Below, piece by piece: positions 3,344 to 17,115 of a stretch of DNA of 32,918 nt. The DNA is from Acidimicrobiia bacterium (GTDB lineage: Bacteria > Acidobacteriota > Vicinamibacteria > Vicinamibacterales > UBA2999). The notes below the pieces were generated by a model. That model was not told the origin of the DNA. It was given only the letters and a program-made list of their open reading frames with translations, and ran no database searches. A program made the position numbers and the translations under genes. The stretch spans positions 1 through 32,918 of the forward strand of contig JAYWEJ010000313.1 of the NCBI GenBank assembly GCA_043779345.1, given 5' to 3'. Position 1 is the first letter of the stretch. The number at the start of each line of letters is the position of its first letter.

Positions 3344-3994
3344 TCAGAAGGTTCCGAGCGGAGTCGCCACGGTCAACTTTGCGCCGGTCGCCGCGAGCAC
3401 GGCGTCGAGGGTGGTGTCCGAGGCAATCTCCTTCAGCACGAGGCCGCCGGCGGTGACGTCGATCACGGCCAGCTCGGTCACGATGCGGTTGACCACCTTC
3501 AGGCCGGTCAACGGCAGCGTGCACGCCGGCAGGATCTTGTGGCCGCCGTCCTTGGTCGTGTGCTCCATCGCGATCACGACGCGCTTGGCGCCGGCGACGA
3601 GATCCATCGCGCCGCCCATGCCCTTGACCATCTTGCCGGGGATCATCCAGTTGGCGAGGTTGCCCTGCGCGTCGACTTCGAGCGCGCCGAGCACGGTGAC
3701 GTCGATGTGGCCGCCGCGCACCATCGCAAACGAATCGGCGCTGCTGAAATACGAGGTGCCGGGCAGCTCGGTCACCGTCTCCTTGCCGGCGTTGATCAGA
3801 TCGGGATCCATCTCGGCTTCGCTCGCCGGATACGGACCGACGCCGAGCATGCCGTTCTCGGAGTGAAGCGTGATCTCGATGCCGGGCGGGATGCAGTTGG
3901 CGACCAGCGTCGGCATGCCGATGCCGAGGTTGACGTAGTCGCCGTCCCGGAGATCCTGGGCGATCCGGTGAACGATCCGATCGCGCTTATCCAC
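3344..3994 (-). CDS. scoB: 3-oxoacid CoA-transferase subunit B
   Basis: 216 aa with a GTG start that overlaps the scoA stop by 8 nt. It has the catalytic-Glu motif SENGMLG and YVNLGIGMP. Confidence 0.9.
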
Positions 3995-4679
3995 GGGTCA
4001 CCTTCTTTTCGATGCGCTTGTCGTACGACGGCCCCTGAATCAGCCGCTTCACGTAGACCCCCGGCGTGTGCACGCCATCGGGCTCGAGCGAGCCGGCGTC
4101 GACCAGCTGCTCGACCTCGGCGATGGTATGACGCGACGCCGTCGCCATCACCGGGTTGAAGTTGCGCGCCGTCTTTCGATACACGAGATTGCCGGTGCGG
4201 TCGCCCTTCCACGCCTTGACAAAGGCGAAGTCGGCGTGGAGCGGCGGCTCGAGAATGTAGGTGCGGCCGTTGATGACGCGGCTTTCCTTGCCTTCGGCGA
4301 TCAGGGTCCCCGCGCCGGTGGGCGTAAAGAAGCCGCCGATGCCGGCGCCGGCGGCCCGCATCCGCTCCGAGAAGGTCCCCTGCGGCACCAGCTCCACCTC
4401 GATCTCTTTCGCCAGGTACTGCCGCTCGAATTCCTTGTTCTCTCCGACGTAGGTCGCGATCATCTTGCGAATCCGCCGCGAGTGCAGCAGCGGGCCGACG
4501 CCAAACTGATCGATGCCGGCGTTGTTGCTGATGATGGTGAGGTCTTTGGTGCCGCGCCGATGCAGCGCCGCGATCAGGTGTTCGGGAATGCCGCAGAGCC
4601 CGAAGCCGCCCATCATGATGGTGGCGCCGTCGGGAATGACGGCGACCGCCTCGTCGGCGGTGGCCAGCACTTTGTTCAT
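3987..4679 (-). CDS. scoA: 3-oxoacid CoA-transferase subunit A
   Basis: The track ORF 3987..4685 starts at a GTG. The ATG at 4679 gives the typical MNKV... N-terminus. The [10 protein letters not shown] motif is present. Confidence 0.9.
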
Positions 4680-4682
4680 GGC

Positions 4683-4712
4683 CACAGATTAAACACAGAT
4701 TGGACGCAGATA
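4683..4712 (-). repeat. three 11-bp-phased direct repeats (AATCTGTG x2 plus TATCTGCG) directly upstream of scoA
   Basis: The plus strand reads cacagatt at 4683-4690 and 4694-4701, and cgcagata at 4705-4712. The repeats sit in an AT-rich 52-nt gap between the tyrA stop and the scoA ATG. No Shine-Dalgarno is visible. Confidence 0.6.
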
Positions 4713-4731: not shown

Positions 4732-5517
4732 TCACTTAATGGACGCTTTGGCGCGGTTGGCTTCGTCGAACAGCTTGCGGATCGCCTCCGGATCCTCGAG
4801 ACGATCAGCGAAGGATGCGAGCTCCGACGCGAGGTATTTGATCAGCGGCTTGAGCTCGTGGCTGTTGCTGGCCAGCACGCTCTGCCAGATGTCGGCCTGG
4901 CTCGACGCGAGGCGCGTGGTGTCGCGAAGGCCGCTGCCCGCCCACTGGAGATTGTCGGCGCCCACCGCCCGCGCCACGATCGCCATCAGCACCGACGCGG
5001 TGACCTGCGGCAGGTGGCTGACCGCGGCCATCAATCGATCGTGCTCCTCGCCGCGATCGGTCAGCACCACCGGCTTGGCGCCGAGCCCTTCGACCAGCTT
5101 GGAGGCGCGCTTCACGGCGCCCGGCGAATCGGGGTTGGTCAGGAACCAGGGGTGGCCGTCGAACAGGTCGGCCCGCGCATCGGCGCCGCCGGTGCCCCCG
5201 GCCATCGGGTGGCCGCCGACGAAATGACGAATCTTCGCGGCCGCGGCCGCGGTCATGATCGCGCTCTTGGTGCTGCCGGTGTCGATGACGAGCGCCCGCG
5301 GCGAAATCACCAGCGGCAGGCTCGGGATGATGTCGAGGATGGCATCGACGGGCGCCGCGAGCACGACGACGAGGGAGTCGCCGATGGCGCTCAGCGACTG
5401 GCCCTTGTCGATGGTCTTGATCTGCAGATCGGGCCAGCGGCGCTTGGCCGCGAGCGCGATTGATGAGCCAATCAGGCCCGGCCCGACAATCGCAAGACCC
5501 TGCGGGGTGTCGGGCAT
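4732..5517 (-). CDS. tyrA: prephenate (or arogenate) dehydrogenase
   Basis: The track ORF 4732..6270 is an over-extension. The in-frame ATG at 5517 gives MPDTPQGLAIVGPGLIGSSIALA (Rossmann fold), and a GGHPMAG motif is present. The product is 261 aa and starts 5 nt after the DAHP synthase stop. Confidence 0.88.
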   Translation of the reverse strand: MPDTPQGLAIVGPGLIGSSIALAAKRRWPDLQIKTIDKGQSLSAIGDSLVVVLAAPVDAILDIIPSLPLVISPRALVIDTGSTKSAIMTAAAAAKIRHFVGGHPMAGGTGGADARADLFDGHPWFLTNPDSPGAVKRASKLVEGLGAKPVVLTDRGEEHDRLMAAVSHLPQVTASVLMAIVARAVGADNLQWAGSGLRDTTRLASSQADIWQSVLASNSHELKPLIKYLASELASFADRLEDPEAIRKLFDEANRAKASIK

Positions 5518-5522
5518 GGCGG

Positions 5523-6569
5523 CTACCGCGCCCAGCCGCGGCGCGCGACGGGCTCCAGGCAAATACTCCTGCCGATCGCGGGCGCGATGATGCGCAGCTC
5601 CGCCATCAGGCGATCGAACTGCGCGGGGAACATCGACTGCGCCCCGTCGCTGAGCGCGTGATCCGGATCGTTGTGGACCTCGATGATCAACCCGTCCGCG
5701 CCCGCCGCCACCGCCGCGCGCGCCATCGGCGCGACCTTGTCGCGGCGGCCCATGCCGTGGCTCGGGTCGACGAAGATCGGCAGGTGCGACAGCTCCTTCA
5801 CGATCGGAATCGCCGACAGGTCGAGCGTGTTGCGCGTGAACGTCTCGAAGGTGCGGATGCCGCGCTCGCAGAGGATGACGTCCTTGTTGCCGCCGGCCAG
5901 GATGTACTCCGCCGACAACAGCCATTCCTCCATCGTCGCGGCGATGCCGCGCTTCAGCAGGATCGGCATGCGCGTGCGTCCGAGCTCGCGGAGCAGCGTG
6001 AAGTTCTGCATGTTGCGGGCGCCGACCTGGTAAATGTCCGCGTACTTGCCGATCACCTCGATCTGGTTCGCATCCATGACCTCGGTGACCAGCTTGAGGT
6101 CGTGGGCATTCGAGCCTTCGCGCAGCAGCTGCAGTCCGGCCTCGCCCATCCCCTGGAAGCTGTACGGTGACGATCGCGGCTTGAAGGCGCCGCCGCGCAG
6201 GATCTTGGCGCCGGCGCGCTTGACGGCCGCGGCGGTCGCGTGGACCTGCGCTTCGCTCTCCGCCGAGCACGGGCCGGCGATGACGATCACCTCGTCGCCG
6301 CCGATTCGCAGATCGCCGATGGTGATGATGGTGTCTTCGGCCTGGAAGGTCCGGCTCGCCAGCTTGTAGGGCTGCGAGATGCGCACCACTTCGTGCACGC
6401 CGGCCATCAGCTCGATCAGCCGCGGGTCGACCTTGCCGCCGCCGACCACGCCCAGCACGATGCGCGACGCGCCGGTCGAGCGATGCACGTCCATGCCGTT
6501 TTCGACGAGTTGCGCAATCACCGCTTCCACTTCGGTATCACTCGCCCGTTCCTTCATCACCACAACCAT
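5523..6569 (-). CDS. aroF: 3-deoxy-7-phosphoheptulonate (DAHP) synthase, type I-beta, with an N-terminal ferredoxin/ACT-like regulatory domain
   Basis: 348 aa with KPRSSPYSFQG and FVDPSHG motifs. A roughly 75-aa N-terminal extension (MVVVMKERASDTEVEAVIAQLVENGMDVH...) resembles the Thermotoga-type regulatory domain. Confidence 0.9.
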   Translation of the reverse strand: MVVVMKERASDTEVEAVIAQLVENGMDVHRSTGASRIVLGVVGGGKVDPRLIELMAGVHEVVRISQPYKLASRTFQAEDTIITIGDLRIGGDEVIVIAGPCSAESEAQVHATAAAVKRAGAKILRGGAFKPRSSPYSFQGMGEAGLQLLREGSNAHDLKLVTEVMDANQIEVIGKYADIYQVGARNMQNFTLLRELGRTRMPILLKRGIAATMEEWLLSAEYILAGGNKDVILCERGIRTFETFTRNTLDLSAIPIVKELSHLPIFVDPSHGMGRRDKVAPMARAAVAAGADGLIIEVHNDPDHALSDGAQSMFPAQFDRLMAELRIIAPAIGRSICLEPVARRGWAR

Positions 6570-6571
6570 AA

Positions 6572-6916
6572 TCAGCTCTCGGTACTTTCTTTATTTGCTA
6601 TTTCGTCTTCTTTATTTCTCGTCTTGTCGCGCGCCGCCTCGATGCGCTGAATCCGGCGCGCTTCGTCCATGATGCGTTCGTAGAGCCGGGCCACCGCATC
6701 GCCGTCGAGCGGCCCGCCCAGCGCTTCATTCACCTGGCGCACGTGCGCGATCACCGCGGCCTCGCGCGCCGGCTCGTAGATCGGCCGGCCCAGTTCGTGC
6801 TTCAACCGGCCGACCGTGTAGGCGCACCGCGCGCGGCTGTCGAGCAGCCGCACGATCACCTCGTCGATCTTGTCGATCTCCTCGCGGAGCTGTTCGAGAC
6901 TCAGTTCCGCAGCCAT
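6572..6916 (-). CDS. chorismate mutase (AroQ class, monofunctional)
   Basis: The in-frame ATG at 6916 lies inside track ORF 6572..7015. It gives MAAELSLEQLREEIDKIDEVIVRLLDSRARCAY, a typical AroQ helix 1. The gene overlaps the trpA 3' end by 16 nt. The last roughly 19 codons are AT-rich and low-complexity. Confidence 0.85.
   Translation of the reverse strand: MAAELSLEQLREEIDKIDEVIVRLLDSRARCAYTVGRLKHELGRPIYEPAREAAVIAHVRQVNEALGGPLDGDAVARLYERIMDEARRIQRIEAARDKTRNKEDEIANKESTES
6587..6617 (-). repeat. 10-nt direct repeat (AAATAAAGAA on the minus strand) x2, 21 nt apart, within an AT-rich island
   Basis: The plus strand reads ttctttattt at 6587-6596 and 6608-6617. The surrounding roughly 50 nt are strikingly AT-rich for this window. 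The repeats lie in the chorismate mutase 3' tail, 18-48 nt upstream of the DAHP synthase ATG at 6569. Confidence 0.6.
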
Positions 6917-7686
6917 CGCACGTACCGTTCCACTTCGTCCAACAACCCCGCGGACTGTCCATGCTCCGCGATCACCTTGACGAGCGCGCTGCCGACGACC
7001 GCGGCGTCGGCCCACTGCCCGATCGCTCGCACGTGCTCGGGCCGCGAGATGCCGAACCCGAGGGCCAGCGGCATGCGCGTTTCGGATTTGACCCGCTCGG
7101 CAAGCTCGCGCGCCGAGTCGTCAACCGTGTCGCGCACGCCCGTGACGCCGAGGCGGGAGATCCCATACAGGAACCCGCTGCCGAGCTCGGATGCCCGGCG
7201 TATCCGCTCGACCGTCGTCGTCGGGCTTAACAGGAAAATTGTATCAATCCCGGCGCGGCCGAAGGCCGTGCGGAACGTCTCCCCTTCCTCGGGCGGCATG
7301 TCCAGCGTCAGGACGCCGTCCACGCCCGCGGCGCGTGCTTCGGTCACAAAGGTCTCCAACCCCATCCGAAGTATCGGATTGGCGTAGCTAAAGATGACAA
7401 TCGGCGCCGAAATCGCCGGGCGCAGCGTTTTCAGCATGCCGAGGACGCCCGTGAGCGTCACGCCTGACGCCAGCGCCCGCTCCGTCGCCCTCTGGATGAC
7501 GGGGCCGTCGGCGAGCGGATCCGAGAACGGCACGCCGATCTCGAGCACGTCGGCGCCGGCGTGATCGAGACGCTTGATGATCTCGGCCGAGCGCGTCAGA
7601 TCGGGATCGCCCGCGGTCACGTAGGTGACGAGGCCGGTCTTGCCGGCGGCGCGCAGTTGTGAGAAGCGCTCGTCAATCCGCGACAT
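6901..7686 (-). CDS. trpA: tryptophan synthase alpha chain
   Basis: 261 aa with the signature LEIGVPFSDPLADGPVIQ. An AAGGAG SD lies upstream of the ATG at 7686. Confidence 0.95.
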   Translation of the reverse strand: MSRIDERFSQLRAAGKTGLVTYVTAGDPDLTRSAEIIKRLDHAGADVLEIGVPFSDPLADGPVIQRATERALASGVTLTGVLGMLKTLRPAISAPIVIFSYANPILRMGLETFVTEARAAGVDGVLTLDMPPEEGETFRTAFGRAGIDTIFLLSPTTTVERIRRASELGSGFLYGISRLGVTGVRDTVDDSARELAERVKSETRMPLALGFGISRPEHVRAIGQWADAAVVGSALVKVIAEHGQSAGLLDEVERYVRWLRN

Positions 7687-7728
7687 ATTTGACTCCTTCG
7701 CGAGAGATTGCCCCTGTCTCTTCGCGAG

Positions 7729-8945
<1,217 letters not shown>

Positions 8946-8949
<4 letters not shown>

Positions 8950-9560
8950 ACTTGCTCCTTCGCTCGTTCGATGAATTCGCGCAACCTGTCGTGATCCTTG
9001 ATGCCCGGTGAGGACTCCACGCCCGACGCGACGTCGACCGCCATGGGCTTCACCGCCGCGATCGCCTGTTTGACGTTGTCGGGCGTCAGCCCTCCGGCAA
9101 GAAAGAGGTCGCGAGACCGGGCGATGGCCGCGGCGCGCGCCCAATCAACGGTCTGACCTGTGCCGCCGTGTTTGACCGGGTCGTGCGCGTCGAGAAGAAT
9201 CAGGTGCTCGGTATCTGGAACATCCGGCTCGATGCCTTCACCGCTCGCGGCCAGGTGCACGGCGCGGACGATCACCAGCCGCGGGCGGTCCTCTCCCCAA
9301 TCAGGCACCTCGCCGTGAATTTGCGCCATGCGAATCCCGGCCTTGTGTCCGGAGCGCACCTCGTCGGCTGATGGATTCACGAAGACGCCGACCGGGGTCA
9401 CGTGCTCCGGCAGCTTCCGTCGAAGTCGGTCCACGAGCTCGAGTGTCGCTGCCCGCGGGCTCCGTGGCCAGAGGACGAACCCGACAAAGTCGGCGCCGAA
9501 ACGCACCGCGGCCTCGGCGTCTTCTCGACGGGTGATACCGCAAATCTTGACGGCGGTCAC
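8946..9560 (-). CDS. trpF: phosphoribosylanthranilate isomerase
   Basis: 204 aa with a GTG start in a GTGA overlap with the trpC stop. The N-terminus is (M/V)[10 protein letters not shown]..., and the gene sits in operon context. Confidence 0.9.
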
Positions 9561-10392
9561 CGAGTGGCCCCACCTTCGCCAAGGCTACGGTGGGCAGGCT
9601 GCATCGACTCGATTAGTCCCGCGAGGGCCGCGCCGGGATCCGGCTCGATCATGAAGCGCTCGCCGATCAGGAACGCGCGGTAGCCGAGCGCTTTCATCGC
9701 CTGCAAATCCGCCGGTGTCTTGAGGCCGCTCTCGCTGATGCCGATCGCGGACGGGGGCAGCACGCCCGCTACTTCGCGCGACGCATCGAGATCCACCTGC
9801 AACGTGCGCAGGTTGCGATTATTGACGCCGATGATCGTCGCGCCCGCCGCGAGCGCGCGCCGGCACTCGGCGGCGTCGTGCACTTCAACCAGCGCGGCCA
9901 GCCCCAGATCGCGCGCCGCCGCGGCCAGCGCCGCCAGCGAGCAATCGTCGAGTGCGGCGACGATCAGGAGAATCGCATCGGCGCCGAGCGCGCGCGCTTC
10001 GAGCAATTGGTACTCGTCGATGATGAAGTCCTTGCGCAGCAGCGGAATCGCCACCGCCGCCCGCACGGCCGCGAGGTGCTCGAGCGAACCGTCGAAGAAG
10101 CCGGGCTCGGTCAGGACGGAGATCGCCGCGGCGCCGGCCTGCTCGTAGCCGGCGGCAATCGACACCGGGTCGTACGCCGTCCGCAGCACGCCTCTCGATG
10201 GCGAGCGCCGCTTGCATTCGGCGATCACGTTGATCGATCCGCTGCGCGACAGTCGCGCCGTGAAGCCCGCCGCGTCCGGCGTTCGCGCCATCGCGCGACG
10301 CTCGAGAGGGGCGCGCGGCTCGCGCGTCATCGCGGCGTCCACCCGGAACCTGGTGGCGGCGACGATCGCCTCGAGCAGGTCGGGGGTCGCGC

Positions 10393-10396
<4 letters not shown>
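9557..10396 (-). CDS. trpC: indole-3-glycerol phosphate synthase
   Basis: This is the C-terminal part of the artefactual 731-aa track ORF 9557..11752. The in-frame GTG at 10396 forms a GTGA overlap with the trpD stop. Motifs VIAECKRRSPSRG and GVNNRNL are present. The product is 279 aa. Confidence 0.9.
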
Positions 10397-11415
<1,019 letters not shown>

Positions 11416-11418
11416 GAT

Positions 11419-11985
11419 CTACAACTCGAGAAAGTTGCGAAGGATGCGGCGGCCTTCGCCCGTCAGCACCGACTCCGGATGAAACTGCACGCCGTGAATG
11501 GGCATCGTGCGGTGGCGCAGTCCCATGACCAGGCGGTCTTCCTTCGTCCGCGCCGTCACCTCGAGCTCCACCGGCAGCGACTGCTCGCCGACGACCAGCG
11601 AGTGATAGCGGCCGGCCTGAATGGATCCCGCCAACCCCGCGAAGAGACCCTTGCCGTTGTGCTCGACCGTCGAGGTCTTGCCGTGAATCGGCAGCGGCGC
11701 GCGCATCACTTCCCCGCCGAACGCGAGGCCGATGGCCTGGTGGCCGAGGCACACGCCAAGCAGCGGCATGCGCGGCCCGAACTCCTTGATCACCGCCAGC
11801 GACACCCCCGCCTGCTCCGGCCGCCCGGGCCCGGGCGAGATCACGACGCGCGCGTGACCGAGGGCGCGCAGCTGCGCGATGGTCGCCTCGTCGTTGCGGC
11901 GCACCACCACCGTCGCGCCCAGCTCACCGAGATACTGGACGAGGTTGTAGGTGAACGAATCGTAGTTGTCTATGACCAGGACCAT
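11419..11985 (-). CDS. trpG: anthranilate synthase component II (glutamine amidotransferase)
   Basis: 188 aa with MVLVIDNYDSFTYNL, the catalytic Cys in GVCLGHQ, and GVQFHPES. Confidence 0.94.
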   Translation of the reverse strand: MVLVIDNYDSFTYNLVQYLGELGATVVVRRNDEATIAQLRALGHARVVISPGPGRPEQAGVSLAVIKEFGPRMPLLGVCLGHQAIGLAFGGEVMRAPLPIHGKTSTVEHNGKGLFAGLAGSIQAGRYHSLVVGEQSLPVELEVTARTKEDRLVMGLRHRTMPIHGVQFHPESVLTGEGRRILRNFLEL

Positions 11986-11990
11986 CGTGG

Positions 11991-13463
11991 CTACAACCCA
12001 CCCTGCGCGAGCTCGAGCGCGCGGATCATCGCGCGCGCCTTGTCGCGCGTTTCTTCGTACTCCGCCGTCGCGTTCGAGTCGGCGACGATGCCGGCGCCGG
12101 CCTGGATGTAGGCCTTGCCGCCCTCGAGCAGGATCGACCGGATGGCAATGCAGAAGTCGAGATTGCCGGCGAAGTCGAGATAGCCGACGGCGCCCGCATA
12201 CAGCCCGCGCCGCGTCGGCTCGAGTTCGTTGATGATCTGCATCGCCCGCACCTTCGGCGCGCCGGAGACCGTGCCGGCCGGAAAGCAGGAAACCAGCGCA
12301 TCGAGCCGATCGCGGCCCTCGGCGAGCTGGCCCTCGACGACCGACACCAGGTGCATGACGTGCGAGTAGCGCTCGAGCGCCATGTAGGTCGGCACGCGGA
12401 CGGTGCCGTAATCGCAGACGCGCCCGATGTCGTTGCGGCCGAGATCGACCAGCATCACGTGCTCGGCCTTCTCCTTCTCGTTCCGCTTCAGCTCCTCACC
12501 GAGCCGGACGTCTTCTTCTTCCGACTTGCCACGCGGCCTGGTGCCGGCGATCGGGTGCGTGATGGCGTGGCGGCCTTCGACACGGACCAGCATCTCCGGC
12601 GACGATCCGACGATCGAGCGATCGCCCATCCGGAGGAAGAACATGTACGGCGAGGGATTGACGTGGCGCAGCGCGCGATACACGGTGAACGCGTCAACGC
12701 CGACTTCGGCTTCGAAGCGCTGCGACAGCACGACCTGGTAGATGTCGCCGGCGGCGATGTATTCCTTGGCCCGCTTGACGATCGACTCGTAGGCCTGCTG
12801 CGACATGTTCGAGACGAGGTTGACGGCGGCGCCGCCGGCCGGCCGCTTGAGCGACAGCGCGCGCTCGAGCTCGCTCTCGAGGAAATCGATCTTCGCGCAG
12901 GCAAACTGGTAGAGCGACTTCAGATCTTCGTCGCCGGAGATGCGGGCGTTGGCGATCAGCAGGATCCGGTGCTGCACGTGATCGAACGCCAGCACCGTGT
13001 CGAACAACATGAACCCGGCATCGTCGCGATCGATCGGCCCGTCGCCGTCGCGCTTCGTGGTCGGCTCGAACCACGCGCCGGTGTCGTAGCCGAGATACCC
13101 GACGGCGCCGCCGGTGAAACGCGGCAGCCCTGGCACGAACGGCGACTGGAAGCTGTTCATCAGGTCGCGCAGGGTGTCGATGAACGGCTTGTCGGCGTTG
13201 GTCGTTACGCCGGCCTTCTCGATGATCGTCTCGCCCTGGCGGCCGCGAAGGATCAGGAACGGATCCTTGCCGAGGAACGAGTAACGCCCGACGTGCTCGC
13301 CGCCCTCGACGCTCTCGAGGAGGAACGCGTAATCGGAGTGCTCGGCGACCTTCAGGAACGCCGAGACCGGCGTCAACAAGTCGGCCACGATCTCCCGGCA
13401 CACCGGCACGAACGTGGCCCGCTTCGCCAGGTCCACGAATTCATCGAACGTCGTCTGCTTCAC
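11991..13463 (-). CDS. trpE: anthranilate synthase component I
   Basis: The track ORF 11991..14081 is over-extended. The in-frame GTG at 13463 forms a GTGA overlap with the aroD/E stop and gives [14 protein letters not shown].... Motifs [16 protein letters not shown] and GAGIVADS are present. The product is 490 aa. Confidence 0.92.
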
Positions 13464-14944
13464 TGCTTGTCCTCTGCGCTGGTCGCGCTTTCTGCGGCGG
13501 TTGCCTGCAATTGCGCCATTGCCGCTTCGCGCATCACGCGAGGCGCGGGGCGGCGGCCGGTCCACCATTCGAACTGCGCCTGGGCCTGGGCGACCAGCAT
13601 GTCGAGGCCGCCGATGATCCGGCAGCGCGCGCGTTCCGCGTCGGCGAGCAGGCGTGTGTACGGCGGGTTGTAGACCAGGTCGTAAACGGTGGCGCCGCTG
13701 TGAAACAGGTAACCATCCGGCAACGGCGAGGCGTCGCCGTGTGACCTGGTGCCGACCGGCGTCGCGTTGACGAGCAGATCCCATGACGCCGGATCTGGCG
13801 GCCATTCGGAGGTCGCCGCGCCCGTCAGCGCCGCGACCGCTTGCGCCTGGTCCCTCCGGCGGGCGGCGATGGTGACCTTCACGCCGGCCGACGCGAGCGC
13901 GACGGCAACCGATCGCGCGGCGCCGCCCGCGCCAAGAATCGTCGCACGCGTGCCGGGCAGCCGCATCGCCGATGCGAGCGGAGCCAGGAAACCGGTCACG
14001 TCGGTGTTGCAGCCAAGCCACCTGCCGTGTTCGCGGCGCAGCGTGTTGACGGACTGAATACGGCGGCTCACCGGATCGCATTCGTCGGCGCGCTCGAACG
14101 CGTCGACCTTGAACGGCGCCGTGACGCTCACGCCGGCGACGGCGGCGTCGCCCGCGAACGCTTCGAAGTCCGCGAAGTCGGACGCGGCAAGCGGGAGGTA
14201 GACCGCATCGTGATGCGCGGCGCGGAACGCCGCATTGTGCATGGCCGGTGACACCGAATGGGAGACGGGCCTGCCGAGGATGCCGTAGACCGTGGTGCGA
14301 GCGCCGATGCGCCGGAACCGGAATTCATCCTGCATCCGGCTCGCCGGCAGCTGGCCCGGCGCCGCGCCGTCGCCGGCGTAGGTCCAACAGGAACCCATCC
14401 ACGACGCGAGCACGCGTGAGGCGAGGCCCGCCTCGCCCATGGCGATGAGCGACATCGGCACCCGCGTGTTCTTGCCGATGTCCCGGAGCGTCAGGCAATC
14501 GCGGAGGCGGTGCGCGGTGATCGCCAGCTTGACGACCTCGGCGCCGCTCGCCAGCATCGCCTGCGCCATCTCCTTCAAGTCATTCGGCACGCCGCTGAAA
14601 TCGTGATGCGAGAGGATCACGCGCCGGCCGCCGGTGCTTTGCATCAAGTCGACGCACGGGCCGTTCCACTCGAGATCGACGTACTCGGCGCCGAGGGCAA
14701 GCGCCTCGCTCAGAATCAGACGGCGCTCCTCTTCGCTGCCCGCGAAGTGCCCGCCCTGGGACTTTGGCCGGCAGGTGATGATGACCGGTTTCTTGCGGCC
14801 GGCGAGCGCGGCCGCGGCGCTCGGATCCTTCACCGTATCCAGCCGCAGCTCGACCATATCGGCGTCACCCGCCTGGTCGCGGCGCGTACGCAGTTCGGCC
14901 ATGGTGTCGGCCGTCACGGTCAGGCAGAGCTTGGCAGGTCGCAT
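13460..14944 (-). CDS. aroDE: bifunctional type I 3-dehydroquinate dehydratase / shikimate 5-dehydrogenase
   Basis: 494 aa. The N-terminal half has type I DHQase motifs (VELRLD, ILSHHDF, VVKLA). The C-terminal half has shikimate dehydrogenase motifs (GRPVSHSVSPAMHNAAF, NTD, GAGGAARS). An AGGAAG SD lies at 14954-14949. Confidence 0.9.
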   Translation of the reverse strand: MRPAKLCLTVTADTMAELRTRRDQAGDADMVELRLDTVKDPSAAAALAGRKKPVIITCRPKSQGGHFAGSEEERRLILSEALALGAEYVDLEWNGPCVDLMQSTGGRRVILSHHDFSGVPNDLKEMAQAMLASGAEVVKLAITAHRLRDCLTLRDIGKNTRVPMSLIAMGEAGLASRVLASWMGSCWTYAGDGAAPGQLPASRMQDEFRFRRIGARTTVYGILGRPVSHSVSPAMHNAAFRAAHHDAVYLPLAASDFADFEAFAGDAAVAGVSVTAPFKVDAFERADECDPVSRRIQSVNTLRREHGRWLGCNTDVTGFLAPLASAMRLPGTRATILGAGGAARSVAVALASAGVKVTIAARRRDQAQAVAALTGAATSEWPPDPASWDLLVNATPVGTRSHGDASPLPDGYLFHSGATVYDLVYNPPYTRLLADAERARCRIIGGLDMLVAQAQAQFEWWTGRRPAPRVMREAAMAQLQATAAESATSAEDKQ

Positions 14945-14958
14945 TCATCTTCCTGAGC

Positions 14959-14990
14959 AAAAAAAAACGCCTCTTCGTATCGAAGAGGCG
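14959..14990 (-). terminator. intrinsic terminator / attenuator hairpin upstream of aroDE
   Basis: The minus strand reads CGCCTCTTCG-ATA-CGAAGAGGCG (14990-14968), followed by T9 (14967-14959). The T run ends 14 nt before the aroDE ATG, so this lies in the leader rather than at a gene end. Confidence 0.8.
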
Positions 14991-15021
14991 CTTCGGTCGA
15001 GCGTCAGAGTGTGTGGTGGAA

Positions 15022-15141
15022 CTACACGGACCGGTTAGCCTCTCCTGTAGGGCACCAATACCACCACGAACCCACACCATTCCCCGTCCGGCCACTATAA
15101 CCGGTCGAAAACAGGGCGATGGCCACGGCTCGCGAGCGCAT
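15022..15141 (-). CDS. candidate trp leader peptide (39 aa from the ATG; 17 aa if started at GTG 15075)
   Basis: This ORF is not in the track, which shows nothing under 60 aa. The peptide is MRSRAVAIALFSTGYSGRTGNGVGSWWYWCPTGEANRSV*. The codons TGG TGG TAT TGG lie at 15066-15055 and the stop TAG at 15024-15022. It lies between a candidate promoter and the terminator. The RBS for the ATG is weak; GGGGA lies 5 nt before the GTG at 15075. Confidence 0.6.
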   Translation of the reverse strand: MRSRAVAIALFSTGYSGRTGNGVGSWWYWCPTGEANRSV

Positions 15142-15153
15142 TTGAACGTCGAA

Positions 15154-15183
15154 AGGCTAACAGACCACTTGATGCGCCGTCAA
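15154..15183 (-). promoter_or_regulatory. candidate sigma-70 promoter for the leader and aro-trp operon
   Basis: The minus strand has TTGACG (15183-15178), an 18-nt spacer, then TAGCCT (15159-15154). This would put the TSS only a few nt before the ATG at 15141. Motif match only. Confidence 0.3.
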
Positions 15184-15206
15184 ACCCCGAATGCGAGCAA
15201 GGCTCG

Positions 15207-15212
15207 TATAAT
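15207..15212 (+). promoter_or_regulatory. perfect -10 hexamer TATAAT upstream of the S55 peptidase gene
   Basis: TATAAT lies 32 nt upstream of the ATG at 15244 in an otherwise GC-rich window. No convincing -35 is present at 16-18 nt. Confidence 0.3.
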
Positions 15213-15243
15213 GGGTCTAAGTCAGCTTCTATCTGGCATTTGC

Positions 15244-17115
15244 ATGCATTTACGAACGATTTTCTCCGCAGTCCTGGCGCTCGGTGTCCTCGCCGCCGCG
15301 CCGCTTGCTCAAACGACCTACTTGCCGCTGGACCAGGTCCGGCCGGGCATGATTGGCGTCGGCCGTACGGTGTTCTCCGGCACGACGCTCGAAGACTTCA
15401 AGGTCGAAGTGCTCGGCGTGATGCGCAATGTGATCGGGCCGAAGCGCAACCTGATCCTCGCGCGCCTCGAAGGCGGACCGCTCGCCAAGACCGGCGTGAT
15501 CGCCGGCATGAGCGGCAGCCCGGTTTACGTCGACGGCAGGTTGATGGGCGCGGTCTCGTACTCGCTCGGCCAGTTCTCCACCGAACCGATCGCGGGCATC
15601 ACGCCGATCGACGAGATGATCGACGCGACGATGCTGTCGGGAGCGGCGCGCGTCACGCGTCCGGTCGCGCTGTCGCTGCAGCCGACACCGCGCGAACTGC
15701 TCGATATCTGGGCGCGTGATCTCGGCCGATCGAGACCCTTCGTCGAGGATGCGTCGCAGGCGCTGGTGCTGTCCGGCGCATCGGACCTGAGCCGCATGGG
15801 CGCGATGCTGCGGCCGATCGCGGTGCCGATGATCGCGTCGGGGTTCGACGCGGCGGTGTTCGATTCAATTTCGTCGTCTTTTTCCGCCGCGGGCTTCGTG
15901 GCTCTTTCTTCTGGGCTATCCTCCGGGCCGGCTTCCGGGCCGGCGGGTCCGCAATCGCCAGGCGCCGGCATGTCGGCCGCCAACACCCGTCCGCTCCAGC
16001 CCGGTGATGCGGTCGGCGTTGGACTGCTGACCGGGGATTTCGAGCTCGGCGCGACCGGCACCGTGACGCACGTCGATGGCGATCGCGTCTATGCGTTCGG
16101 CCATCCGCTTTACAACCTGGGCCCGACGCAGTTTCCGATGACGCGCGCGGTGGTGCAGGTCGTCCTGCCCAGCCTGATGTCGTCGAGCAAGCTGGCGAGC
16201 TTCGGCGAGGTCGTCGGCATCGTGCAGCAGGATCGCGCCACTGCCATCGCCGGCCGCCTCGGGCCGGGGCCGTCGATGATTCCCGTGACGATCACGCTGA
16301 ACTCGGATCGCGCGCCGTCGCGCACCTTCAATTTCGGCGTGGTGCGTGACTTCACGTTCACTCCGCTCCTCACCTATCTCTCCGTCGCCAACGTCCTGAC
16401 CTCGTACGAGCGCGGCGCCGGCCCGGCGTCCTTTGCGATCCGCGGCAGCGCCTCGATTCGATCCGAAGGCGAGCTGTCGTTCGAAGACATTTTCAGCGGC
16501 GATCAACCTGCGGGCGGCGCGGCCGCCTACGTCGCCGGTCCGTTGACGGCGCTGCTGAAGAACTCCGGCGAGAACGTCGAGGTCGAAAAGATCGAGCTGA
16601 CCATCGACGCCAGCGAGCAGCCGCGCAGCGCGCGCATCGAGCGCGTCTGGCTCGACACGACGCGGCCACGCTCGGGGCAGCACGCCATCGTCAACGTCGC
16701 GCTGCGATCGGCGCGCGGCCAGGAGATCGTGCGCCAGGTGCCGATCCAGATTCCGGCGAACCTGACCGGGGCGCTGCAGCTCACCGTGGCCGACGCCGTT
16801 CGCACCACCGCCGACGATCGCCGCGACAGCCGCGGCGCCGACATGCAGCGCGTCTCGCAGATGATGCGGTCCTTCAACCGCGCCCGCCGCAACAATCGCC
16901 TCTACGTTCGCCTGACGTCGTCCGATGCCGGCGCGATCGTCAACGGCGAGCCGATGGCCGGCCTGCCGCCGTCGGTCCTCGCGGTGATGGAAGCCGATCG
17001 CAACAGCGGCACCGTCGGATCGCTCCGCACGATGACGCGCGGCGAATGGGAGCTGGCGCTCGATTTCGCGGTGACCGGATCCCGTCAGCTGACCCTTTCC
17101 CTCGATCAACCCTGA
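15244..17115 (+). CDS. secreted SpoIVB-like serine peptidase (S55 family domain) with a long C-terminal region
   Basis: The in-frame ATG at 15244 within track ORF 15013..17115 gives the signal peptide MHLRTIFSAVLALGVLAAAPLAQ. GVIAGMSGSPVYVDGRLMGAVSY (GMSGSP at 15505-15522) closely resembles the SpoIVB catalytic Ser segment. GTVTHVDGDRVYAFGHPL (His codon at 16102-16104) resembles the SpoIVB His segment. The product is 623 aa. Confidence 0.75.
   Translation: MHLRTIFSAVLALGVLAAAPLAQTTYLPLDQVRPGMIGVGRTVFSGTTLEDFKVEVLGVMRNVIGPKRNLILARLEGGPLAKTGVIAGMSGSPVYVDGRLMGAVSYSLGQFSTEPIAGITPIDEMIDATMLSGAARVTRPVALSLQPTPRELLDIWARDLGRSRPFVEDASQALVLSGASDLSRMGAMLRPIAVPMIASGFDAAVFDSISSSFSAAGFVALSSGLSSGPASGPAGPQSPGAGMSAANTRPLQPGDAVGVGLLTGDFELGATGTVTHVDGDRVYAFGHPLYNLGPTQFPMTRAVVQVVLPSLMSSSKLASFGEVVGIVQQDRATAIAGRLGPGPSMIPVTITLNSDRAPSRTFNFGVVRDFTFTPLLTYLSVANVLTSYERGAGPASFAIRGSASIRSEGELSFEDIFSGDQPAGGAAAYVAGPLTALLKNSGENVEVEKIELTIDASEQPRSARIERVWLDTTRPRSGQHAIVNVALRSARGQEIVRQVPIQIPANLTGALQLTVADAVRTTADDRRDSRGADMQRVSQMMRSFNRARRNNRLYVRLTSSDAGAIVNGEPMAGLPPSVLAVMEADRNSGTVGSLRTMTRGEWELALDFAVTGSRQLTLSLDQP

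Follow-up and report, generated by a model that had tools for sequence, protein, structure and literature searches.

A predicted ribosome-mediated leader-peptide attenuator with mixed Trp and Tyr codons upstream of an aro-trp-tyrA operon in Vicinamibacteria

The window analysed here, positions 1-32,918 of contig JAYWEJ010000313.1 (assembly GCA_043779345.1; 32,918 nucleotides (nt)) from a bacterium placed in the Vicinamibacteria of the Acidobacteriota, carries on its minus strand a large operon for aromatic amino acid synthesis, preceded by a candidate transcription attenuator. Pfam assignments define the ten genes of the presumed regulated operon (4732-14954), in the order aroDE-trpEGDCFBA-DAHPS-tyrA (DAHPS, DAHP synthase): aroDE comes first (14944-13460, ATG at 14944), followed by trpE, trpG (11985-11419), trpD (11415-10393), trpC, trpF (9560-8946), trpB, trpA (7686-6901), the DAHP synthase gene (6569-5523) and finally tyrA, whose stop lies at 4732. 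A preliminary description of this locus had proposed a ribosome-mediated Trp attenuator in the gap between aroDE and the divergent gene of an S55 peptidase. This gap indeed measures 299 nt, with the S55 start codon at ATG 15244, and base-by-base reading confirmed that the aroDE ATG has its own AGGAAG Shine-Dalgarno (SD) sequence at 14954-14949. Because the upstream gene is divergent, no upstream minus-strand gene needs a terminator at this site. The synteny between the S55 gene and the operon is conserved in relatives. All features described below are on the minus strand unless stated otherwise.

Within the gap, we read the unlisted open reading frame (ORF) previously placed at 15141-15022, which comprises 39 codons, encodes MRSRAVAIALFSTGYSGRTGNGVGSWWYWCPTGEANRSV* and keeps its frame in relatives. 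Ahead of it lies a promoter-like element (15154-15183), read from the sequence and composed of a -35 hexamer, TTGACG, at 15183-15178, an 18-nt spacer and an extended -10 element, TG-T-TAGCCT, at 15162-15154, its 3' end located 12 nt ahead of the leader ATG. The pattern TTGAC(G/A)-N17/18-TGnTAnnnT is common to the three sequence classes of relatives described below, in which it ends 11-12 nt before the leader start codon. This conservation suggests that the element is a promoter and that transcription would start a few nt before the leader AUG. If so, the 5' untranslated region (UTR) would be about 5 nt long, pointing to initiation of the leaderless kind; no SD sequence precedes the leader ORF in the window or in any of the three classes.

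The leader ORF contains the Trp-Trp-Tyr-Trp run (WWYW in the protein) UGG UGG UAU UGG at 15066-15055, the putative regulatory codons. As noted earlier, TGG TGG TAT TGG occurs at this position, and we found it to be unique in the 32.9-kb window: it is the sole match even when one mismatch is allowed, with 0.06 expected. In six operon genes, Trp accounts for 0.9% and Tyr for 1.25% of the codons.

The ORF is followed by an intrinsic terminator (14959-14994), for which a terminator scan calls a stem of 14 pairs (14994-14964) and then U9. Its core, CGCCUCUUCG-AUA-CGAAGAGGCG at 14990-14968 with U9 at 14967-14959, corresponds to the hairpin first recognized as CGCCTCTTCG-ATA-CGAAGAGGCG plus T9, and the U tract ends 14 nt before the aroDE ATG. 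The terminator can be replaced by a predicted antiterminator. The 5' strand of the latter (15026-15045) consists of the 8-mer GGAGAGGC at 15045-15038, CGGUC at 15033-15029 and CGU at 15028-15026; it is located wholly within the ORF and begins 9 nt past the last Trp codon. Its 3' strand (14982-15004) consists of ACG, GACCG at 14998-14994 and GCCUCUUC at 14989-14982, the last of which doubles as the terminator 5' arm. The four segments of the original proposal, written as DNA GGAGAGGC, CGGTC, GACCG and GCCTCTTC, are all found where they had been placed. The leader stop codon, UAG (15022-15024), lies 13 nt past the 8-mer, and just beyond it comes a C/A-rich segment that we call the CCAC box (CCACCACACAC, 15009-15019), complementary to the Trp codons. 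The complementarity between GTGGTGG (15067-15061) and CCACCAC (15019-15013) had been described with correct coordinates, but the latter begins after a gap of 2 nt from the stop codon rather than 3 nt. In isolation, the terminator folds at -20.8 kcal/mol and the antiterminator segment at -23.6 kcal/mol.

The element was sought in relatives by three routes. A search with the AroDE protein, limited to one genome per species, yielded 38 loci from Vicinamibacterales-like Acidobacteriota metagenome-assembled genomes (MAGs), some of them mislabelled. The element was present in all 33 loci with enough upstream DNA (32 and the window), which share a short ORF (mostly with an MRSRA start), a variable middle, WWYW and the terminator. 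A DNA-pattern search combining the Trp tract and the purine 8-mer returned 69 loci; in 63 the hit immediately precedes aroDE and trpE, and the remaining six are close to chance level (about four expected). Finally, a profile search based on the AroDE alignment identified 490 relatives, 80 of which were kept, and nearly all those with intact upstream DNA have the leader, the purine 8-mer and the terminator. Removal of duplicates left about 110 distinct leader sequences, which served as the sample for the statistics on the 8-mer, the spacing and the folds. Three main classes can be distinguished by the end of the leader: class A, to which the window belongs (..GEAxRSV*), class B (..EEASALA*) and class C (..EEAA*). 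In relatives, the leader precedes the same aroDE-trpEGDCFBA-DAHPS-tyrA operon. A chance origin of the Trp run had been judged improbable from the window; in agreement with this, the arrangement is found again ahead of aroDE in all relatives whose sequence extends far enough upstream, and leader ORF, Trp tract, terminator and antiterminator are all conserved.

A few loci deviate. In four of them (L033, L035, L036 and L037, from MAG isolates named MFD..., L036 being a nanopore MAG), the aroDE frame is shifted or interrupted by stops, and the leader of L035 lacks an in-frame stop; such defects probably stem from indel errors in the assemblies, not from biology, and the loci should be used with care. 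Upstream of aroDE in L169 (at about 940-1200), no recognisable aromatic leader ORF is found, and a long terminator-like pairing, GCCTCTTCC ... GGTTGGAGGGGC-TTTC, comes right after TATAGT; this genome may have lost or remodelled its attenuator. The distance between terminator and aroDE also varies: it is 67-190 nt in many relatives (e.g. L006, L023, L020, L007, L001, L002 and L016) versus 14 nt in the window, and the long spacers consist of short, TGA- or GATTG-rich repeats in tandem, such as GAGAGCTGAAAGCTGAAAGCTGAGAGCTGAGAGCTGAAC and GATTGCAGATTGCGGATTGCGGATTGCGGA.

Several observations suggest, indirectly, that the leader ORF is translated. It starts with ATG (some class B leaders use GTG), and the distances from the ATG to the first Trp codon in relatives (27, 57, 60, 69, 72, 75, 81 and 84 nt) are multiples of 3 in eight cases out of eight. 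The family comprises leaders of 23-43 codons, with a middle part variable in both sequence and length. The first codons encode MRSRA in most relatives, with synonymous changes (CGC/CGT, TCG/TCC/TCA/TCT, CGA/AGA). The identity of the codons in the run is likewise conserved. A Trp and Tyr run is found in the approximately 110 distinct leaders in varied order (WWYW, WWWYW, WRWYW, WWRYW, YWWWY, WWYY, WWWYY(Y), YWYWYY, WYWYW and a few runs with Phe). That Trp and Tyr codons are shuffled and yet always there fits selection on decoding, not on an RNA or protein binding site.

The embedded Tyr codon had been singled out because tyrA belongs to the operon. This remark gained weight, since Tyr codons are constant in nearly all run variants and tyrA was found in the operon in 20/20 relatives with both ends visible, the leader lying about 9.5 kb upstream on the same strand. 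These 20 relatives include lineages with YWWWY leaders and a TyrA identity of only 43%. Within the runs, 98 of 130 Tyr codons are TAT and 32 are TAC; by comparison, the window genes aroDE, trpG, trpD, trpF, trpA and DAHPS use TAC 19 times versus TAT 4 times, in a genome of 67% GC. The minor Tyr codon therefore appears to be preferred in the regulatory run.

The spacing of the RNA elements is constrained as well. In 73 of 110 leaders, the distance from the run to the start of the 8-mer is 9 nt, which places the 8-mer right at the front of a ribosome held up at the last aromatic codon; in 23 leaders this distance is 12 nt. Between the 8-mer and the stop codon there are 1-22 nt, and exactly 13 nt in 87/110 leaders. 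The 8-mer itself has the purine consensus GRRGRGGC, which pairs with the terminator 5' arm. Opposite C, its bases are G in 110/110 unique leaders; opposite U, either A or G occurs (65/39, 102/8 and 81/29). In 10 of the 11 cases of C instead of U in the terminator arm, the facing 8-mer base is G, and in one leader (L056) a change from A:U to G:C involves all three strands, namely the 8-mer and both arms of the terminator. The amino acids encoded at the 8-mer vary (EEA, EGA, GEA, GGA), which argues that the constraint acts on the RNA. Overall, the antiterminator is 93.8% paired in relatives versus 37-49% when the partner strand is slid. For the terminator stem, pairing reaches 97% in 33 relatives, and three of its pairs have changed in both strands. 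Applied to the nascent RNA of class A, RNAalifold returned the antiterminator as the consensus structure, extended by CGU:ACG; no both-side changes were seen, because the sequences are nearly invariant there, so that informative antiterminator variation comes from the wider sample of leaders only. On the 3' half, RNAalifold recovered the terminator only. Conservation of the helices was one of the tests that the preliminary description had set for its proposal, and both the pairing and the wobble-aware variation show the antiterminator to be conserved.

We then asked how a ribosome on the leader would affect these structures. We folded the nascent RNA, starting 12-15 nt ahead of the run and stopping immediately short of the terminator 3' arm, with a ribosome footprint extending from 15 nt upstream of the first base of the A-site codon to 12 nt downstream, and computed the gain in free energy when the terminator 5' arm is allowed to pair. 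With the first aromatic codon in the A site, the gain was -9.4 kcal/mol in the window (median of 110 leaders, -10.2), and with the second, -11.1 kcal/mol (median, -10.8). It fell to -1.7 kcal/mol (median, -4.3) with no ribosome and to -1.9 kcal/mol (median, -4.7) with the ribosome on the stop codon. The proposal that a ribosome masking the W codons frees the antiterminator is reproduced by these predictions: in the window, the minimum-energy fold is then exactly GGAGAGGC/CGGUC paired with GACCG/GCCUCUUC.

A third, candidate structure, the anti-antiterminator, would pair the Trp codons with the CCAC box just past the stop, which provides its 3' strand; it encloses the 8-mer and is present in the minimum-energy folds of the window. 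In class B, it comprises 13-16 pairs, with a core of ten pairs that is 96% paired, and the CCAC box changes only from C to U or from A to G, keeping wobble pairs with the invariant UGG codons. The duplex between Trp codons and CCAC box beats shuffled boxes in classes B and C, with z of -2 to -3.4.

Attenuation of the trpL type is characterized by tandem regulatory codons and mutually exclusive hairpins ending in a terminator. Taken together, our results make it highly probable that the element is a ribosome-mediated, leader-peptide transcription attenuator of the whole aroDE-trpEGDCFBA-DAHPS-tyrA operon, working like trpL, as the conserved sequence features and the fold predictions suggest. 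We propose that transcription would begin a few nt before the leader AUG and that a ribosome would translate the 39-codon leader while RNA polymerase heads for the terminator. When charged tRNA-Trp is scarce, the ribosome would stall on UGG UGG UAU UGG, and scarcity of tRNA-Tyr would probably act likewise. The stalled ribosome would keep the Trp codons off the CCAC box, with its leading edge just short of GGAGAGGC; this segment and CGGUC would be free to pair with the emerging GACCG and GCCUCUUC, sequestering the terminator 5' arm and allowing read-through into aroDE. When Trp and Tyr are plentiful, the ribosome would pass GGAGAGGC to reach the stop 13 nt further on, and cover CGGUC and the CCAC box. 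With the antiterminator blocked, the terminator hairpin with its U9 tract would form and transcription would end 14 nt before the aroDE ATG. If the RNA is left untranslated, the hairpin between Trp codons and CCAC box would bury GGAGAGGC, and termination would ensue too. Leader translation, the coupling of transcription and translation, and the response to Trp and Tyr are steps that we infer.

Several points weigh against this interpretation. First, two-sided compensatory changes are few, because most helix positions are invariant. Second, the full-length fold that bears the terminator is always the stabler one (for instance, -59.6 versus -48.1 kcal/mol with the ribosome on W2); since the terminator wins at equilibrium, the switch must be kinetic, operating co-transcriptionally as in E. 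coli. Third, the ribosome at the stop codon had been thought to cover all the antiterminator segments of the ORF. This holds for CGGUC, as for the CCAC box, but not for GGAGAGGC, of which only the last 2 nt are covered: in classes A and B, the terminating ribosome masks 2 of the 8 nt of the 8-mer, together with the second antiterminator helix and the CCAC box, whereas in class C it covers the 8-mer fully. Fourth, the duplex between Trp codons and CCAC box is no better than composition-matched shuffles in class A, including the window (z of about 0), where a G/U-rich strand opposite a C/A-rich strand pairs about equally well after shuffling; we therefore do not claim the anti-antiterminator as proven for the window. 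Fifth, a sigma-70 consensus scan scored no promoter at the leader, which is explained by the -10 element matching the consensus at three of six positions only. Sixth, efficient translation of a leader lacking an SD sequence hinges on the predicted leaderless-like initiation. Finally, all the relatives are MAGs and the evidence is computational.

We regard Tyr as rather likely to be a second input besides Trp, though we hold this part of the interpretation with less assurance than attenuation itself. A broader proposal is made tentatively, and we give it somewhat less than an even chance: the element would be a two-input sensor with leaderless-type initiation, in which a shortage of charged tRNA-Trp or tRNA-Tyr (or tRNA-Phe in some lineages) de-attenuates a single supraoperon covering the common shikimate, Trp and Tyr branches, the codon mix being tuned to operon content; the terminated leader RNA or the peptide might also act in trans, in the manner of rnTrpL and peTrpL of Sinorhizobium.

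The same switch could in principle be run by a trans-acting factor, such as a TRAP-like protein, an uncharged tRNA recognized as in a T-box, or a small molecule bound by a riboswitch, with the ORF being incidental. The RNA strands are conserved as nucleotides more strongly than the peptide, the leader has no SD sequence, and UGG repeats could in principle pair with the CCA 3' ends of tRNAs. However, catalogued elements of this kind were excluded by the Rfam scan that had been suggested earlier: no family reached the gathering score in the whole window, and at E<=10 the region 14800-15400 gave only four chance-level matches, none of them to the Trp leader (RF00513) or the T-box. Nowhere in the 299-nt gap do (G/U)AG triplets form a chain longer than one triplet, while the TRAP type needs 9-11 triplets 2-3 nt apart, and the T-box core motif is absent from the gap. 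Moreover, the reading frame is kept across eight lengths, the stop codon stands at a tight distance from the antiterminator strand, and codon identity is kept while the order and the sequence of the run vary, which a sequence-specific binder would not tolerate. A trans-acting factor seems very improbable.

An equally slim chance is left for the unit being a small gene or small RNA in its own right, with a separate promoter and terminator and no bearing on aroDE, which would be transcribed from another promoter. The unit does consist of a promoter-like element, an ORF and a terminator, the 67-190 nt spacers of many relatives leave room for another promoter, and attenuator RNAs and leader peptides of Sinorhizobium can act in trans (PMC6614838, PMC7298713). 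Against such independence, the aroDE ATG comes a mere 14 nt after the U tract in the window, the middle of the peptide is conserved in neither sequence nor length, and the element is essentially found only upstream of aroDE. In addition, complementarity between a segment of the ORF and the terminator arm, conserved in a wobble-aware manner, would be purposeless in a free-standing gene. The least plausible alternative is that the nascent WWYW(C/G/S/R)(P/T/S) acts within the exit tunnel as an arrest peptide responding to some ligand, a free aromatic amino acid for instance, as TnaC does to free Trp in an established precedent, rather than to tRNA charging: the motif and the two following codons are conserved, but W/Y order and number vary too widely (WWYW, YWWWY, WWYY, WRWYW) for a specific tunnel-interacting peptide, the two codons past the run are kept as nucleotides (nGC nCn) and not as amino acids, and a ligand-induced stall would here cause read-through when Trp is abundant, the wrong sign for a biosynthetic operon.

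The leader attenuator favoured here shares its logic with that of E. coli trpL (Rfam Trp_leader RF00513; Pfam Leader_Trp): a short ORF with clustered Trp codons upstream of trp genes, an intrinsic terminator preceded by an antiterminator that uses the terminator 5' arm, and an extra hairpin of the Trp codons, here a candidate one, favouring termination when the RNA is untranslated there. By contrast, no sequence or structure homology is detectable between the two. The trpL leader has 14 codons versus 23-43 here, and the present run holds Tyr besides Trp codons. Here the regulatory codons are followed, still within the ORF and ahead of the stop, by the 5' strand of the antiterminator, around which the Trp codons and the CCAC box would close as a hairpin, whereas in trpL segment 2 is shared by the 1:2 and 2:3 pairings. 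Unlike trpL, the present leader has no SD sequence and a predicted 5' UTR that is very short, and its operon adds aroDE, DAHP synthase and tyrA. The mixing of codons for several end products of the operon in one peptide is shared with the E. coli thr leader (Thr and Ile) and ilvGMEDA leader (Ile/Val/Leu), but the present leaders mix Trp and Tyr, with occasional Phe, and form an unrelated sequence family; no description of a mixed Trp and Tyr leader was found in the literature.

In Bacillus subtilis, the aro supraoperon is arranged as aroFBH-trpEDCFBA-hisC-tyrA-aroE and TRAP binds (G/U)AG repeats. As in the present operon, trp genes are part of a larger aromatic operon with tyrA and common-pathway genes, and a choice between terminator and antiterminator is made upstream of the trp genes. 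The sensor there is TRAP, in contrast to the locus described here, which has no (G/U)AG repeats and in which the attenuator precedes the whole operon. Outside enterobacteria, leader-peptide attenuation with tandem Trp codons is cited for Corynebacterium glutamicum, for the Streptomyces venezuelae trpE leader and for Sinorhizobium meliloti trpL/rnTrpL (PMC4833913, PMC6614838). These systems also attenuate trp genes in high-GC hosts, but they belong to other phyla, are unrelated in sequence, have W-only runs and control trpE or trp genes only.

The element is a new sequence family, found in no catalogue searched, although its mechanism is classical and not surprising in principle. Three representative leader peptides gave no match at E<=10 to the trp leader peptide families of Pfam (Leader_Trp) and NCBIfam, and an exact look-up of six leader peptides found none of them in a collection of 15 billion proteins. 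A full-text literature search found no Trp or Trp/Tyr attenuator described for Acidobacteria, with subscription journals thinly covered, so that earlier comparative-genomics reports are possible. Predicted attenuators in Acidobacteria are almost all without an assigned function, and cis-regulatory RNAs with assigned function are almost nil in this phylum (PMC2965389). The element offers a testable regulatory mechanism for aromatic amino acid synthesis in Vicinamibacteria, an abundant soil lineage. With its hundreds of members, it also defines a family of RNAs and leader peptides that has so far escaped annotation and could be entered into Rfam and annotation pipelines. If true, the mixing of Trp and Tyr codons ahead of an operon with trp and tyrA would extend the principle of multi-amino-acid leaders to the aromatic amino acids. 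A start codon 11-12 nt past the -10 element and devoid of an SD sequence also suggests leaderless-like loading of the coupling ribosome, which bears on attenuation in SD-poor lineages.

Two further pairings involve the leader ORF. A hairpin within it, CCGGUUA-UAG-UGGCCGG (15088-15104), is present in the minimum-energy folds of the window, and most class A relatives have its counterpart, CGGUCUUUUGACC/GGCC, within an outer CACCG..CGGUG stem; this hairpin could be a candidate pause or synchronisation hairpin for RNA polymerase. In addition, RNAalifold pairs the first leader codons (GCGCU..GCC; 15139-15127) with the Trp run and the following nGC (15066-15051), that is, columns 15-27 with columns 104-117 of the class A alignment A3. 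This pairing of codons 1-2 with the region of the third Trp codon shows changes on one side only and is an unproven side observation; it might explain why the two codons past the run are kept as nucleotides (nGC nCn) and not as amino acids.

The flanks of the locus yielded two minor observations. On the plus strand, a perfect TATAAT (CTCGTATAATGG) is located at 15207-15212, 32 nt upstream of the S55 ATG 15244; in relatives this region reads CTCGTATAATGG or CCGTATAACC, and class B relatives carry TTGACC-N17-TATAAC at the equivalent position. This element probably serves the divergent S55 gene as its promoter. At the other end of the operon, two CoA-transferase subunit genes (3344-4685, minus strand) lie 46 nt past tyrA.

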